Program-made: the position numbers and the translations under genes
In this document: positions 10,495 to 54,328 of the stretch, piece by piece
How positions within the stretch are numbered: position 1 is the first letter of the stretch
Layout of the letters: the number at the start of each line of letters is the position of its first letter
The notes under the pieces: model-generated
The model's database searches: none
What the model was told of the DNA's origin: nothing
The model's input: the letters and a program-made list of their open reading frames with translations, nothing else
Source: Octopus vulgaris
Taxonomy: Eukaryota
Direction: 5' to 3'
Length of the DNA stretch: 64,000 nt
Assembly: GCA_951406725.2 (NCBI GenBank)
Contig: OX597827.1
Span: 81,778,001-81,842,000 of the forward strand

Positions 10495-13364
10495 TCTTAT
10501 AGAAAGAATATAATATGACATATTAAAGAATATAATATGGACATATTACTTGAAGCCTCTGACGAAGTAGAAGGGGATAGAGCATCACAGGGGGTAGAAG
10601 ACAGCTGGACGTTTCTAAGGGACAACCTGCTGAGAGCCACTGACCAGATCTGTGGCTGGTGCAAAGTCCCCTCTCGACCTAGAATAACGTGGTGGTGGAA
10701 CAATATTGTAGACAGGGCTATTAGAGAAAAGAGACAGGCTTGGAAGGTCTGGAAAAATGGGGGTAGCAGGGAATTGTATCAGACTGCCAAAAGAGAAGCT
10801 AGGAGACAGGTTTATTTAGCCAGAGGGGAAGCAGATAAGAAAAAATTTGCCAATGTTCTGCGCCGTGAGGACCAAAGACTGGAGGTGTTTCGTGTTGCAA
10901 GACAGTGTGTGAGAGAGAATCGTGATGTGGTAGGAGAGAAGTGTGTTCGCATGGAAGATGGTTCACTTGCGCTAAATGAGGATGCAAAGAGAGAGGTTTG
11001 GAGATGCCACTATGAAAGGTTGCTGAATGAAGAAAATGAATGGGATAAAGAGAGTCTGCCGAATGTTGACCCAACAGAGGGACCAGCTATCCGAGTTGAT
11101 AGTTCTGTGGTAGCTAAGGCAATTAGAAGCATGAAGACAGGGAAAGCCCCAGGCCCATCAGGAATCACTGCAGAGATGCTCAAAATGTCTGGTAGTGTCG
11201 GCTATAGCCTAGTCACCCATATAGTTAATCAGGTGATACACAAAGGGGTCATACCCAATGACTGGTGTAGCAGTATAATAGTCAACTGCTACAAAGGTAA
11301 AGGTGATGCCCTAGATACAAACAACTACAGAGGTATCAAGCTGTTGGACCAGGTGATGAAGGTTACGGAGAGGGTCATAGCCCAACTAATTAGAGAGAGA
11401 GTTAGTTTAGATGAGATGCAGTTTGGGTTTGTGCCAGGGAAAAGTACTACTGATGCTATATTCCTGGTAAGGCAGCTGCAGGAGAAATACCTAGCCAAAG
11501 ATAAGCCCCTGTACCTGGCTTTTGTTGACATGGAGAAAGCCTTCGACAGGGTCCCCCGATCCCTTATCTGGTGGGCAATGAGAAAACTAGGGATAGATGA
11601 ATGGTTAGTGAGAGCTGTGCGGGCCATGTATAGGGACGCCGCTAGTAGGGTGAGGGTTGGAAATGAGTACAGTGAAGAATTCCGGGTAGAGGTAGGGGTC
11701 CACCAAGGCTCAGTACTCAGCCCCCTCCTATTTATCATAGTCCTCCAGGCAATAACGGAGGAATTCAAGACAGGATGCCCTTGGGAGCTCCTCTATGCTG
11801 ATGACCTTGCTCTAATTGCTGAGTCGCTATCAGAACTGGAGGAGAAGTTTCAGGTGTGGAAACAAGGATTAGAATCGAAGGGCCTCAGAGTCAATCTAGC
11901 TAAAACCAAAGTCGTAATCAGTAGGAAGGTAGACAAATCACAAACACCTTCAGGTAGATGGCCCTGCTCGATCTGTAGAAAAGGTGTAGGTAGAAACTCT
12001 ATAAGATGCACCAAGTGTAAGCTATGGACACATAAGAGATGCAGCAATGTCAAAGGAAGGCTAACTAGGAAGATGGTTTTTGTATGTGGCAGATGCTCAG
12101 GAACAATAAACACTGAAAATGCTCTGAGACCAACTTCTGTCACTTTCCAGGGAGAAAAACTAGAAATAGTTGATAGTTTCCGTTACCTAGGTGACCAAGT
12201 CAGCAGCGGGGGCGGGTGTGCTGAAAGTGTAACTGCTAGAGTAAGAATAGCTTGGGCAAAGTTCAGAGAGCTCTTACCTCTGCTGGTGACAAAAGGCCTC
12301 TCGCACAGAGTGAAAGGCAGACTGTATGATGCGTGTGTACGAACAGCCATGCTACATGGCAGTGAAACATGGGCCGTGACTGCTGAGGATATGCGTAAGC
12401 TCGCTAGAAATGAAGCCAGTATGCTCCGATGGATGTGTAATGCCAGTACTCACACTCGGCAGAGTGTAAGTACCTTGAGAGAAAAGCTGGACCTAAGAAG
12501 CATCAGTTGTGGTGTGCAAGAGAGACGTTTGCGCTGGTATGGTCATGTGGCGAGAATGGATGAAGATAGTTGTGTGAAAAAGTGCCACACCCTAGCGGTT
12601 GAGGGAACCTGTGGAAGAGGCAGACCCAGGAAAACCTGGGACGAGGTGGTGAAGCACGACCTTCGAACTTTAGGTCTCACCGAGGAAATGACTAGAGACC
12701 GAGACCTCTGGAAGTGTGCTGTGCGCGAGAAGACCCGGCAGGACAAGTGAGTCCACAACCCGTGGCCTTCTACATGGGATGGAGCCAGCCTACGTATGCA
12801 TACCTTCCCTTCTTGGGACACAAAACTCTACTTGTGAAGACGTGTTGAGGCAAGTGAGGATCAGAATCGAAATCGATCAATGGAAATTGCGGATGTGCTA
12901 CCAGTGCCGGTGGCATGTCGAAACTCTGCTTGTGAAGACCCATTGAGGCAAGTGAGGATCAGAATCGAAATCGATCAATGGAAATCGATCAATGGAAATT
13001 GCAGATGTGTTACCAGTGCCGGTGGCATGTAAGAGAACCTTCCGTTTCGCGACCGTTGCCAGCACCGCCCCGTTTCGTGTTCGTTGCCAGCCTCGCCTGG
13101 CCCTCGTGCCGGTGGCACATAAAAAAACACCATACGTTCGTGGCCGTTTGCCAGCTCTGGCTGGCACCAGTGCGGGTGGCACGTAAAAAGCACCCACTAC
13201 ACTCACGGAGTGGTTGGCGTTAGGAAGGGCATCCAGCCGTAGAAACACTGCCAGATTTGACTGGGCCTGATGAAGCCTTCTGGCTTCACGGACCCCAGCA
13301 GAACCGTCCAACCCATGCTAGCATGGAAAACGGACGCTAAATGATGATGATGATGATGATGATT
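10495..13364 (+). mobile_element. Young 5'-truncated RTE-clade LINE
   Basis: Uninterrupted RT ORF, ~590-bp 3'UTR, (GAT)n tail, candidate TSD TGATGATT at 10487-10494 and 13357-13364. No AP endonuclease domain. Confidence 0.95.
10537..12750 (+). CDS. RTE LINE reverse transcriptase ORF (737 aa, endonuclease truncated) with an internal PHD finger
   Basis: KAPGPSGI, NYRGIKLL, QFGF, FVDMEKAFDRV, GVHQGSVLSPLLF, YADD (11794-11805), FRYLG, RRLRWYGHV, RGRPRKTW. C4HC3 motif at 11965-12096. The ATG lies at the truncation junction and may be fortuitous. Confidence 0.93.
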   Translation: MDILLEASDEVEGDRASQGVEDSWTFLRDNLLRATDQICGWCKVPSRPRITWWWNNIVDRAIREKRQAWKVWKNGGSRELYQTAKREARRQVYLARGEADKKKFANVLRREDQRLEVFRVARQCVRENRDVVGEKCVRMEDGSLALNEDAKREVWRCHYERLLNEENEWDKESLPNVDPTEGPAIRVDSSVVAKAIRSMKTGKAPGPSGITAEMLKMSGSVGYSLVTHIVNQVIHKGVIPNDWCSSIIVNCYKGKGDALDTNNYRGIKLLDQVMKVTERVIAQLIRERVSLDEMQFGFVPGKSTTDAIFLVRQLQEKYLAKDKPLYLAFVDMEKAFDRVPRSLIWWAMRKLGIDEWLVRAVRAMYRDAASRVRVGNEYSEEFRVEVGVHQGSVLSPLLFIIVLQAITEEFKTGCPWELLYADDLALIAESLSELEEKFQVWKQGLESKGLRVNLAKTKVVISRKVDKSQTPSGRWPCSICRKGVGRNSIRCTKCKLWTHKRCSNVKGRLTRKMVFVCGRCSGTINTENALRPTSVTFQGEKLEIVDSFRYLGDQVSSGGGCAESVTARVRIAWAKFRELLPLLVTKGLSHRVKGRLYDACVRTAMLHGSETWAVTAEDMRKLARNEASMLRWMCNASTHTRQSVSTLREKLDLRSISCGVQERRLRWYGHVARMDEDSCVKKCHTLAVEGTCGRGRPRKTWDEVVKHDLRTLGLTEEMTRDRDLWKCAVREKTRQDK

Positions 13365-39421: not shown

Positions 39422-39795
39422 AACGTAAAATGCATCATCCGAACATGGTTAGTGCCAGTACCCGCTGACTGGTTCCCATGCCAGTGGCATGTAAAAATCA
39501 CTATCCGAACATGATCGATGCCAGGTCTACCTGACTGACTTCCGTACTGGTGACATGTAAAAAGGACCATCCAAATGTGGCTGATGCCAGTACCTCCAAC
39601 TGGCTCTCGTGCTGGTGGCACGTAAAAATCACCCACTACACTCTCGGAGTGGTTGGCATTAGGAAGGGCATCCAGCTGTAGAAACACTGCCAGATCAGAC
39701 TGGAGCCTGGTGCAGCCTCCTGGCTCTCCAGATCTTAATCAAACCGTCCAATCCATGCTAGCATGGAAAACAGATGTTAATTGATGATGATGATG
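39422..39795 (+). mobile_element. RTE family 3'-end copy with repeated GTGCC.GTGGCA.GTAAAAA modules
   Basis: Same terminus and (GAT)n tail as 13180-13364. Confidence 0.9.
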
Positions 39796-41181: not shown

Positions 41182-41241
<60 letters not shown>

Positions 41242-41272
41242 TATAGATAGATATAAATATGTATATGTGTAT

Positions 41273-41317
<45 letters not shown>

Positions 41318-41357
41318 TAAAAAAATGGAGTTAACGCAGGCGTAATCAAATATTTTT

Positions 41358-41443
41358 ACTTTCGACACACGTTTCGAAAATTCCACTGATACTATTCAAA
41401 AGAATAAATGGTATAAACAATGCAATCTTCTCCTCAGGAAAGT
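41358..41443 (-). ncRNA. Type I hammerhead ribozyme with intact catalytic core
   Basis: ACTTTC-CTGAGGA-GAAGATT..AATTTTC-GAAAC-GTGT-GTC-GAAAGT: 6-bp stem I, 7-bp stem II closed by G-C, GUC triplet. Confidence 0.8.
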
Positions 41444-41896
41444 GAAAAAAACGAAACTCGTCAATAATACATTTTAGCAAAAAATGATGGATTTGTATAG
41501 CGATAGACAGAACGCTATTAATATTGTTTAAAAAAACCTTATATGTTATAATGTCATAAGTAGCTAACAGAAAGAGTAGGGATATTAATAGTGAATGTTA
41601 AATATACAGGAAAGTAAAGTTTAAATTACATATAATGATGGAGACTACTTATATGCACTAAATGGCAAAAACATACATTTAGTGCATATAAGTAGTCTCC
41701 ATCATTATATGTAATTTAAACTTTACTTTCCTGTATATTTAACATTCACTATTAATATCCCTACTCTTTCTGTTAGCTACTTATGACATTATAACATATA
41801 AGGTTTTTTTAAACAATATTAATAGCGTTCTGTCTATCGCTATACAAATCCATCATTTTTTGCTAAAATGTATTATTGACGAGTTTCGTTTTTTTC

Positions 41897-41980
41897 ACTT
41901 TCCTGAGGAGAAGATTGCATTGTTTATACCATTTATTCTTTTGAATAGTATCAGTGGAATTTTTGAAACGTGTCGAAAGT
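41897..41980 (+). ncRNA. Type I hammerhead ribozyme, mirror copy
   Basis: ACTTTC-CTGAGGA-GAAGATT..AATTTTT-GAAAC-GT-GTC-GAAAGT: G.U at the base of stem II and a minimal stem III. Confidence 0.75.
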
Positions 41981-42171
41981 AAAAATACTTGATTACGCCT
42001 GCGTTAACTCCATTTTTTTATTCATATTATTCAAAATATTCAACGTAAACACGAAGTTTCAACCTTTATAAACAAGGAGTTACAACACCTTTACTTGAGA
42101 GATTTTTGCTGCCCTGGTAACTATTTATTTATTTTTCCGTGTTAATTGTTAACAAGGTAAAAATACACTTA

Positions 42172-42229
<58 letters not shown>

Positions 42230-50458: not shown

Positions 50459-50490
50459 AAGCTGTCAGTGCTGTGAGTGGAGATTGAACC

Positions 50491-52914
50491 ATGAATGTCA
50501 TCAATGGGGTGTCTATGTGGACACTACAGTCGGCGATATTATTATTATTTTCCTGGCTGACCGGCTGCCACAGCATTGACCTTACCTATCATGTGGAGGA
50601 AGAGAAATACTCGGGCACTTACCTCGGGGACATTGCTGCTGACTCCCACTTAAGAGACAGTTTACCATTCCAAGATCACAACTTAGTGACATTTAACCAA
50701 TTGAAGCCACGTCGCAATGGCAAACACCAGTTGTTCAACGTGACAAAGGCAGGTAAGCTGTACACGGCACAGACATTAGATGCCGAGAAACTATGTACAT
50801 ATAATATGGAATGTTTCCGCATTTTCAAAATTGCCATCCACCAAGATGAAACTTTCATGAAAATATTGAAGGTGAAAGTGGTCATTGTGGACATAAATGA
50901 CCACAAACCTGAGTTTGCCAAAAAACTGGTCAGCCTTCAGTTTGATGAAGGCGATGGAAAGGGCATGAGGAAATCCATTCCTAATGCCGTAGACAAGGAC
51001 GTTGGTGTGGTCAATTCGAAAATTACTTATCAGATAGAACGCAGCTCTGAGAAGGCATCATGCCCTTTCACGTTGTCTGTTAGAAAAACTATAAGTGGCA
51101 GGTCAGAACTTGGAATTGTTTTGGAGAGAAAACTTGACAGAGAAGTGAAAGATTCCTATAATATTCGCGTGGTGGCCAAAGATGGAGGTTATCCACCTAA
51201 ACAAAGTACTTTAGATGTGAAAATAACTGTGACAGATGTTAATGACAATGCACCAGTGTTTAATAATGATATTTATAATATTTCTATACAAAATACATAC
51301 CAAAGGAACAAACCAGTCGTTATTTTGTCAGCAAAAGACTCAGACTTTGGGGAAAATGGCCATGTTTCTTATTATTTCAGTTCAGAGACTCCAGAGGCTG
51401 TCAAATCTCATTTTCGACTGAATCAAGTCACTGGAGAAATATTTCTCCAAAAAGACATTTCTTTAGAACGGAAGCAAGCTTATAAATTGTTTGTGCGAGC
51501 TACTGATCAAGGTAGCTCCCCTCTCAGTTCTATAGCCATGGTTCTGGTAAATATTGTTAACCAACACAACATGGCTCCAGAAATAGATGTCAACTTTGTC
51601 ACTCAGATAAAAGAGAATACAGCAGCCATTTCTGAAGGAATCAAAGTTAGCAGTTTCATAGCTTATGTCAGTGTTATTGACAATGATGTTGGACAGAATG
51701 GTGAGGTGGAATGTTCTTTAGAACATGAAAAATTTCTTCTCTTAGATTTAGGTTCAAATGAATATAAGGTAACATTGAGGAAACCTGTGGACAGAGAGAA
51801 ACAAGATAGGTATGACATAACAATTTCTTGCGAAGACAAAGGATCCCCTCCTTTACAGACTCAGAGACAGTTCTCCATTGAAGTAATGGATGTCAACGAT
51901 GTACAGCCACAATTTACAAAAGAATCGTTTAAATTTCTGACTTATGAAAATGGGAAAACAAACTTCCCCATTGGTTTTATAAATGCTACTGACCCCGATA
52001 TGGGAGCTGGAGGTCAACTGACTTTTTCTCTGTTGAGTACCAGCAAACATGTGATACCATTCCAGATAACTGATTATGGTTTTATCTCAACCACTATACC
52101 ACTGGATAGAGAACAACAAAATGTTTATAAGTTCCAAGTATTTGTCAAAGACAACGGGAATCCTTCATTAAATAACACAGCCAATGTGATTGTAGAAGTT
52201 TTAGATGAGAATGATAATGCCCCTTATTTCACCTTCCCTAGTTCGGACCCTTTCAGTTTAAATGTCCACTATCATCCCCAAAGTAAAAAAGAGATCACTA
52301 TTTTAAGGGCTTCAGACAGGGACAGTCATTTAAATGCATTCCTTAAATATGACATAGTAAAAGGCAACAACAAACAGTTATTTGCAATAAACCCCTATTC
52401 TGGGGCACTGTCTTTTGCTCGGACAGTTTACCAAAATGATGCTGGTACCTATGACTTGAAATTCGTTGTGAAAGACAGTGGGACCCCTGTTCTCTCAGTG
52501 ACAACCATGGTGTCTTTAACACTGACCGTTAGCAACAAGACATCTCCAGCACTGAACAATGTTCCATTACAGACTGACCACATGATTAACTTGACCTGGG
52601 TCATTGTTATTGTAACGGCCGCTGTAATAGCCTCAGTGGCCATTGTAGTATCAATAACCCTGTGTATTGTCAGATGTAACAATGGTCGTAGCCACTTGGA
52701 ACCAACTGAAATTAGTACCACCATCCCAGCCAATAGAGAAAAAAGTCATTTCATATCTCTGACAAAAAAACCTGTCCCAGCATCAAGACATTCCGAAATG
52801 AAGAACAGAAACACTCAATTTATGGAATCAAGTCGGGAATTTTATCCTCAGTATGAGTCCCAAAGTGAGTGGACCACTTCAACGTCTGAAAGGAGGCCTG
52901 CATCTGTGCTGTTG
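50491..52914 (+). CDS. Pcdh: Protocadherin (cephalopod-expansion type), first coding exon: signal peptide, EC1-EC6, TM, proximal cytoplasmic region; paralog not identifiable
   Basis: Hydrophobic leader ending GCHS|IDLTYHVEEE. LDAE/LDRE/VDRE and DINDH, DVNDN, DVNDV, DENDN linkers. CX5C in EC1. TM at 52591-52671. Consensus donor G|GTAAGT at 52914/52915 in phase 0 after 808 codons; unspliced, the ORF reads on to a stop at 52941. Alternative start at 50515. Confidence 0.96.
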
Positions 52915-54328
52915 GTAAGTATAAACGTTTGGCTTATTTGAAGGTTGAGCACAAGTTTGATATTTGCAAAGCATTTTCTTGCATTCTTGCTGATTCCATA
53001 TCTATGGAATAATTGCCAGAGAAGGAGATATTATTGGACTTTAGAAAGTATCACACAAACAACTGTATGTAACCATAACACCAGGGCTATATATCTGGGT
53101 GGTGCTATGTCAACACCAGAAATCTACAAAGGATGGTAAATATTCTGGTTATTGTGTTCTTGGAGTGTCATGATAGAATCTGGTCATAATTTGTCAAATC
53201 TAAAAATAGATACTGAGAAATGAAGACGAAGAAAGGTTGCAGTGATGTTATGAAGAGAAGTAGCTTAGGAATAAAGGAGAGAAGTAGGATGAAAACGGTT
53301 GGAAGATTTCTCTCTGTAATACATGAGTATATTTCAGTGTAGAGGAGGACAACTCCTGTTGTTGAAGAGGTGGTGGTGGTGGTGGCGGGTAGGGGGAGGG
53401 TACAAGGATTGTGCTGCTGCTGCTGCTACAGAAATGACCATTCTGAACAGCACAAGGAAAACACAGCAAATGTGTGTGTAGAGAGAGAGAGAGAGGATAG
53501 AGAGATACTGTGTTAGATAGACAGACAGGCAGACAAACAGATAGACAGAGAGAGAGAGAGAGAGAGAGAGATACTGCATTAGATAGACAGACAGACAGAC
53601 AGATAAATAGCTTTGTGAAACTGCACACAGGCGGGTGTCACATTGTAAAGTGGCTCAATCTCACATGTTAGTACCAACACGTGGACCTTGTGTGCCTTTA
53701 ACTGTGTCCCTTCTTTTACAAACATTCAGGGCCCTCTCCGTTTCAGGATAACTTTCTCCTTTCCTTCATTGAGGCACATGGGGGAGCCTCTGTGGACTAA
53801 GTTATATATAAAAAATAGATTATGTCACAAAATCATATACAACACACACACACACACACATGTAAACATGCCACTGTCACATGTTGTGCCAGCTAATACT
53901 GCAACTCTACTGCAATTTAGCTGCACTCTTACAGTTGCTGCTGTGGATTATTATGCAAACATGCATTACTGCACAGCATAAAACATTGTTGCACACTTGC
54001 ATTTGGTGTTCTGTGTGTTGTAAATGTGTCAGCTGACAGGCATTGCAATGTGTTGCAGCCTGAATGTGCACTCGTCACACCATATATCAGTGCATGTATA
54101 CTGCATGTATTGCATGTTGCAGCAACAGCAACCAACATAAAACAGTGATGTGCAGGATAACACTACTGATTGTGGTCTGCTACAAGGTGACACACTTCTT
54201 CTGCAACTCTTCAACAACAAGTTACTGTCAAGCACTCACCTCTGGCATTGCACTCCTGTCAATGGAGCAGAGATGAAGATGCAGTGGTTTAAACAGTGTA
54301 ATACTCAAGTGGTATTGGAGTGGTATTT

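Follow-up and report, generated by a model that had tools for sequence, protein, structure and literature searches.

The stretch of Octopus vulgaris DNA analysed here (hereafter the window; 64,000 nt of contig OX597827.1) contains, as the original prediction had stated, a near-perfect hairpin of 717 bp. Its inverted arms lie at 41311-41664 (354 bp) and 41676-42027 (352 bp), on either side of an 11-nt spacer at 41665-41675. Comparison of the two arms shows complete identity across the inner 288 bp, and a separate repeat search recovered a 298-nt ungapped inverted pair at the hairpin. All of the differences between arms fall within the outer ~66 bp, namely two substitutions (41350/41988 and 41376/41964) and a 2-nt indel at 41367-41368. 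The spacer had been described as a loop. It is indeed present between the arms, but it is element sequence that belongs to the right copy: in 28 of 28 other loci, the element is continuous through this segment or a close variant of it. The right copy, moreover, extends to 42174, 147 nt past the hairpin. The whole insertion is, in effect, 41311-42174, and it is asymmetric.

Positions prefixed with r refer to a natural full copy of the element (L063:2761-5562), in which the stop codon is at r2320, the hammerhead core at r2528, the predicted cut after r2601, the short 3′ end at r2653, and the tail 3′ end at r2800. The left arm (41311-41664, minus strand) is a 5′-truncated copy covering r2301-2653 and terminating at the short end, with 96% identity to L063. 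The right copy (41663-42174, plus strand), also 5′-truncated, covers r2288-2800, including the 11-nt spacer and the tail, and terminates at the tail end. The 5′ truncation points of the two copies (r2288 and r2301) are only 13 nt apart, and the junction alignment shows 2 nt of microhomology where the copies meet head to head (41663-41664). The right copy opens with the final 10 codons and the stop (WQKHTFSAYK*; 41663-41695, plus strand) of an open reading frame (ORF) for a reverse transcriptase (RT) with a GIY-YIG domain, the C-terminus of which matches that of the family ORFs. The 147-nt tail (42028-42174, plus strand), found in the right copy only, corresponds to the start of the 5′ leader of the element and has 615 exact 30-mer matches genome-wide. 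Sequence and family preference mark a (TA)n/(CA)n microsatellite at 41186-41310 as the left-end target site and a (TA)n stretch at 42175-42226 as the right-end one.

A single 817-codon exon of protocadherin type (50488-52941, plus strand; Pfam Cadherin, E 4e-73) is located 8.3 kb downstream of the hairpin; the 100 kb that flank the window on each side contain no further cadherin exon. Elsewhere in the window, a 743-codon open frame at 10519-12750 on the plus strand carries reverse-transcriptase motifs and is presumably of the RTE type, and three imperfect repeats with a spacing of 66 bp are found at 39425-39632, within an apparent dispersed repeat.

Judged by its motifs, each arm is the 3′ end (last codons, 3′ UTR, and hammerhead) of a Penelope-like retrotransposon (PLE) of ~2.85 kb with features of the Hydra clade. 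Among the best 40 of 2075 candidates genome-wide, 39 other places match the arm over its full length at 95-97% identity, and in many of the 28 loci inspected the sequence past the spacer leads into the ORF. This ORF, with its RT and GIY-YIG parts, is present in full copies, and in one of them (L234) a frame of 778 codons is open. The full copies L063, L234, L245, and L247 are arranged as an inverted copy, a pseudo-LTR, the ORF, a second pseudo-LTR, and a tail, while the arrangement in the window is an inverted copy, a pseudo-LTR, and a tail. Exact words of the canonical hammerhead core (29-mer), the U4C core, the 3′ UTR, and the tail were counted 280, 495, 313, and 615 times genome-wide, respectively, and control words had 0 matches. 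Counted by the exact core 29-mers, the family has at least ~775 ribozyme copies. The PLE family itself is new; the hairpin is an already known kind of insertion.

The Hydra clade is described in passages of PMC8557442 as comprising C-terminal EN+ PLEs with RWK and DKT motifs, no CCHH, CxxC and CxH beside a conserved E and N, and a linker CxCx5C motif before the endonuclease. The octopus family has RWL, DKT, CLLC..E, and N..CKH, and CCHH is absent from its GIY-YIG-type domain; it also presents the general traits of a unit below 3 kb (~2.85 kb), a hammerhead, and insertion into (TA)n. At E 1e-10, there were 63 homologues among 8000 scored, and an alignment with 18 homologues displays the RW, DKT, YRDD, IYQC..YIG, CxxC, and CxH motifs. 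The CCHH and DKG of the Neptune, Nematis, and Penelope-Poseidon clades are absent, as there is one cysteine between the GIY- and YIG-like motifs and DKT takes the place of DKG. Every homologue that spans the relevant region (17 of 17) has the linker CxCx5C, the cysteines of which are absent from L061, L062 (L062:3390-5330), and four ORFs of a sister subfamily. Consequently, the family is filed by its motifs as Hydra-like and not as a full member of the Hydra clade. The RT and GIY-YIG names come from motifs and from a by-eye comparison with the alignment in PMC8557442; in Pfam, two copies of the ORF matched no family and 8 homologues had no relevant hit, and a PDB sequence search with the alignment as query was blank. 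That (TA)n is still targeted without the linker cysteines speaks against a role of the linker as the targeting module.

The sister subfamily carries U4C and N7A in the hammerhead core and is the larger of the two, with 495 exact 29-mers versus 280 for the canonical core. It includes L037 and L234, and so the 778-codon open ORF belongs to it; part of the subfamily carries GUA at the cut site. The U4C change is said to lower hammerhead activity considerably in vitro while still allowing viroid infectivity (PMC3088659). The larger size of the U4C subfamily suggests that efficient cleavage is not required for spread. Two remnants that are 71% identical to the tail region (L152:9378-9577 and L161:3455-3626) probably represent, on this similarity, an older related family. 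Words of the family are found identical in sequencing runs of three organisms.

The original prediction had also placed an outward-facing hammerhead in each arm, and this was borne out. A type I hammerhead descriptor, applied to both strands of the 64-kb window, matched only at 41358-41443 on the minus strand and 41897-41980 on the plus strand. In both arms, the conserved core (CUGANGA, GAAA, and NUH) is intact and helices I and II are present, and the cuts are predicted between 41364 and 41363 in the left motif and after 41974 in the right one. The Rfam check that had been suggested gave matches at both sites with Hammerhead_1 in 151-base scans (left, 24.6 bits, E 3e-4; right, 12.9 bits, E 2.6), but both are under the gathering score of 34, and a 6-kb Rfam scan at E<=1 reported no hammerhead. 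Rfam matches to miRNAs and snoRNAs were rejected as simple-repeat or chance hits below their own cut-offs. The analysis supports the earlier proposal that the motifs are hammerheads of a PLE pseudo-LTR within an inverted duplication.

The left motif has a helix I of 6 bp, a helix II of 7 bp with a long extension, and a helix III of 2 bp with a 4-nt loop, the latter at 1.2 kcal/mol above the minimum. In the right motif, a 2-nt deletion leaves a helix III loop of 2 nt that, in the constrained fold, is impossible to close. The minimum-energy folds contain helices I and II, with modest z-scores (-1.2 and -1.6). The helix III segment, a palindrome in the family majority, has a predicted dimer energy of -3.9 kcal/mol in both arms versus -7.4 kcal/mol in that majority. 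Dimers are the presumed active form of PLE hammerheads with a weak helix III, and their activity in vitro is low (PMC4209133). The core is intact in 106 of 148 family copies, and at a divergence of ~2% the intact cores of the two arms are thus unremarkable; the core itself, compared with the rest for signs of selection after insertion, diverges by 0.9% versus 0.9-1.4% elsewhere, in a sample partly picked by the core pattern. The hammerhead cut site shows no enrichment of 5′ truncations (3 of 38, P 0.34), which are in excess over r2586-2616 (20 of 38 for an expected share of 0.33, P 0.01), perhaps because cDNA synthesis may stall at structure or at palindromic microhomology. They are ~2-3 times denser over this 3′ half of the hammerhead (r2586-2616), as well as 35-100 nt from the tail end (r2700-2765), than nearby.

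Across the family, two fixed 3′ end sites, 147 nt apart, account for 185 of the 192 pieces that reach r2560. A (TA)4 follows 76 of 86 short ends and 78 of 99 tail ends, a class that includes internal pseudo-LTRs. In a hammerhead-selected set (69 of the ~73 first loci, in genome order on C1-C4, chosen by an exact hammerhead 29-mer), a head-to-head junction is found in 43 of the 69 loci, 30 of these junctions joining a short to a tail end. Head-to-head pairing is thus routine among copies of the arm, which belong to a Hydra-like PLE family; a whole hammerhead in both arms, facing outward, is seen in 13 of the 69. A tail-selected set of 77 loci, taken in order by a tail 30-mer and with one event counted three times, contains 51 junctions, of which 38 are short+tail, 1 tail+tail, 1 short+short, and 11 other; 17 of the 38 short+tail pairs have no sequence in common. 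Once 30 duplicate loci and 20 neighbourhood stretches are dropped, the pooled set, which includes loci picked as pairs, has a junction in 108 of 182 loci and 110 junctions in all: 82 short+tail, 1 short+short, 1 tail+tail, and 26 with another end. The arms do not overlap in 26 of these 82 short+tail pairs, and in 43 of the 82 the tail arm begins more than 30 nt 3′ of the short arm. Among the first 100 listed matches to the U4C core, there are 22 minus/plus pairs within 5 kb and 0 plus/minus pairs.

The pivots vary between loci, and the 5′ truncations of the two arms are independent across the family. Microhomology of 1-6 nt was found in 17 of 46 scored junctions, a count that is blurred by mutations near the junctions. 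At the short site, tail-arm stops seemed to accumulate in one sample (5 of 30), but a second sample did not reproduce this (2 of 38). Head-to-head joints from other copies are also present in contigs of sequencing runs from three organisms, with sides of only 22-28 letters. In 3 of 54 short/tail pairs (L104, L107, and L130), the arms differ at the subfamily marker r2529, so that they may at times come from different templates. Identical junctions recur at several places (L035-L037 on C28, L170/L181, and L252), and these are probably segmental or tandem duplications of single insertions.

We consider it probable that the hairpin is a single truncated insertion of a Hydra-like PLE, in which two 3′-end pieces were placed head to head in (TA)n, likely through cDNA priming from two nicks. 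According to this model, the element protein, perhaps as a dimer, would nick both strands of (TA)n; reverse transcription would be primed at the tail site by one nick and at the short site by the other. Each cDNA would terminate early, and the 3′ ends of the two would be joined by microhomology. At this locus, stops at r2288 and r2301 would result in a tight hairpin. In support of such a scheme, the PLE protein of the anole cleaves and extends both target strands in vitro, initiates at two internal sites that delimit the tail, and is predicted to dimerise, and hammerhead cleavage is dispensable in vitro (PMC11167929). Its start sites in vitro are the same on both strands (PMC11167929), so a strict pairing of one site per arm is not predicted by that work. 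The stop accumulation that did not recur and the limited share of junctions with microhomology also count against the model. Among the freely accessible literature searched, no paper tied twin priming to PLE inversions.

At this locus alone, a fold-back of the tail-primed cDNA fits equally well, given the tight pivot with its 2-nt microhomology and the identical inner arms. Here, one cDNA would fold back on the microhomology around the 11-nt loop, copy itself, and join the other target end, and palindromic PLE junctions have been interpreted in print as the outcome of such self-priming (PMC3846280). Within the family, near-symmetric pivots (within 30 nt) are mildly in excess in the tail-selected set (8 of 38 short+tail pairs for a null of 4.5, P 0.035), but they are not in the hammerhead-selected set (4 of 30, where shuffled partners predict 2.7, P 0.25). 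Self-priming also does not account for the end of the left arm at the fixed short site, a site that solo copies and non-overlapping pairs use as well, and it is unable to yield the 26 of 82 pairs that have no common sequence. Given these pairs and the use of one end site per arm, priming from two nicks fits better than the published idea; self-priming appears rather improbable as the origin of the hairpin.

The identity of the arms at this locus is unusual. Over 343 compared bases, they show 6 rare shared variants and 2 differences; the figures for 55 other pairs (10,374 nt) are 11 and 240. The two arms have 9 substitutions in common against the family majority, 7 of which form three variant clusters that occur genome-wide in these two arms only. 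Divergence between arms is generally low in 13 pairs selected from the U4C subfamily (21 differences over 5623 nt), which indicates that arms start out alike, and no gradient of arm differences is seen in other pairs (80 inner, 93 outer). Elsewhere, L236 (C1:109120400-109124900) is a second perfect pair, with overlapping arms of 1491 nt, 0 differences, and 4 shared private variants; of two such variants tested, one is found in its arms only and the other also at one further place. Large sex-chromosome palindromes are a known case of arm-to-arm conversion. That the inner 288 bp at the present locus were afterwards made or kept identical by arm-to-arm repair has somewhat less than an even chance, while an origin of the identity in a rare diverged template, absent from the assembly, is doubtful, and one in assembly polishing a little more doubtful still. 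GC-biased conversion is unsupported (5 of 7 weak/strong changes are towards GC for a background of 0.51, P 0.24), and an ADAR-edited template was rejected as the source of the shared variants, 2 of 9 being A>G in the RNA sense. In the outer part of the right copy (41964, 41988, and the region of 42061), the alleles at r2589, r2615, and r2687 are frequent in the U4C subfamily but rare elsewhere, and are interleaved with canonical ones.

A more radical possibility is that the insertion is real and its perfect inner identity, or even the entire inversion, is an artefact of assembly or polishing. The confinement of arm differences to the outer ~66 bp would agree with this, as would the variant clusters unique to the two arms and the 2-3 sister-subfamily alleles in the outer right arm, which mis-mapped reads might leave. 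Furthermore, no contig piece spans the junction among the 32 listed of 1614 from four runs, the longest listed being 53 nt; at the 100% identity of this test, other copies dominate, rare variants are dropped, and some bins with private variants are uncovered in two runs. Nevertheless, a chimera from a fold-back read would mirror the right flank and the flanks actually differ, the left arm stops at the second natural end of the family inside its own (TA)n, and arm differences do persist in 17 other tight pairs of this assembly (51 in 2433 nt). An artefact is, consequently, quite unlikely.

Modelled folds suggest that the locus is most likely inert and ordinary transposon debris, as its ribozymes are on opposite strands, helix III pairing between them is impossible, and they would be buried in a read-through duplex. 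Since the motifs face outward, the read-through RNA of either strand has one ribozyme, in the arm made second. The hairpin RNA of 717 nt has a predicted fold of -567 kcal/mol, compared with about -17 kcal/mol for the ribozyme, and the hairpin would thus outcompete ribozyme folding, with which it had been expected to compete; burial in this duplex is predicted to silence the ribozyme and not to switch it. A role of the hairpin RNA as a substrate for ADAR or Dicer is possible; a working RNA switch is unlikely. The suggestion of a switch for the protocadherin gene is not supported, as no alternative fold is within reach and helix III has decayed. A broader version, in which the host retains the hairpin as dsRNA or as a ribozyme switch on that gene, could draw on the unusual likeness of the arms, on the two intact cores, and on the position of the hairpin upstream of the sole cadherin exon within 100 kb of the window. 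Such pairs are, however, common debris, given the 13 of 69 loci alike and the 22 minus/plus pairs among the first 100 listed U4C-core matches; at a divergence of about 2%, cores would be expected to stay intact; one arm has a broken helix III, and both have a weakened family palindrome; and L236 provides another perfect pair. Host retention is thus very hard to credit. Least credible of all is mobility of the hairpin as a fold-back unit (a non-autonomous palindromic element, as the original prediction had it, or a retrozyme), which is suggested by the near lack of coding sequence in the insertion and by the derivation of retrozymes from PLE pseudo-LTRs (bioRxiv 10.64898/2026.07.22.740005), but is contradicted by a junction with no second copy among the best 40 of 628 candidates genome-wide, locus-specific pivots, the lack of a tandem array, private variants found nowhere else in the genome, and arms that are pieces of a coding element.

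Priming from two nicks can be extended into a more complete account, which in its entirety could as easily be wrong as right. Here, one complex would prime at two fixed RNA sites, one per strand; hairpins would arise when both cDNAs stop together; tight hairpins would be kept symmetric by arm-to-arm repair; and neither the canonical core nor the linker zinc finger would be needed for spread in (TA)n. If true, the family would constitute a genome-scale record of how PLEs form inverted insertions. The formation of tandem and inverted structures and the bias towards microsatellites are both named as open PLE questions in PMC8557442. The near-strict pairing of end sites, together with the non-overlapping pairs, translates into a clear-cut prediction for the in vitro system already available, and the ORF that survives in L234 makes tests practical.

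Several known systems offer a comparison. In LINE-1 twin priming, both target nicks prime cDNA, which leads to a 5′ inversion joined by microhomology; the second primer lands at variable internal sites, with no duplication. In the present family, by contrast, the two sites are fixed and the arms often overlap. Non-LTR retrozymes consist of a short non-coding hammerhead unit repeated directly in tandem (bioRxiv 10.64898/2026.07.22.740005), in contrast to the inverted, single arrangement at this locus, where the junction is unique among the best 40 of 628 candidates. The minimal PLE hammerheads described in PMC4209133 resemble those found here in being of type I, with a long helix II, a weak helix III, and, in the family majority, a palindromic loop. 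They differ in that helix II has here an extension of ~46 nt, and that the motifs at the locus are on opposite strands with a mutated helix III.

Among PLEs, the family resembles the Hydra clade, as presented in passages of PMC8557442, in its size below 3 kb, single ORF, RW(K) and DKT motifs, C-terminal GIY-YIG without CCHH, CxxC and CxH around E/N, pseudo-LTR hammerhead, and (TA)n targets. It differs in the missing linker CxCx5C and in a tail of 147 nt versus 30-40 nt. Compared by eye, the homologue P0011 resembles Hydra-1_Ajap of the same paper, and Hydra-1_Obim, an octopus family also reported there, differs from the present family in both protein and hammerhead (PMC8557442). Poseidon PAc of the green anole (PMC11167929) shares the two internal starts that bound the tail, the AT-rich targets, the hammerhead upstream of the starts, and the cutting and extension of both target strands. 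It belongs, however, to another clade, and its start sites are inside the ORF and alike between strands; the passages of PMC11167929 considered here make no connection between priming on two strands and inverted insertions. Finally, the head-to-head inverted pseudo-LTRs, the one-sided tail, and the overlap or palindrome at the junction are those of canonical PLE insertions (PMC8557442, PMC3846280), for which the mechanism is left open or self-priming is proposed in the corresponding passages. In contrast to these descriptions, the arms of the present family pair near-strictly by end site, often without any common sequence.
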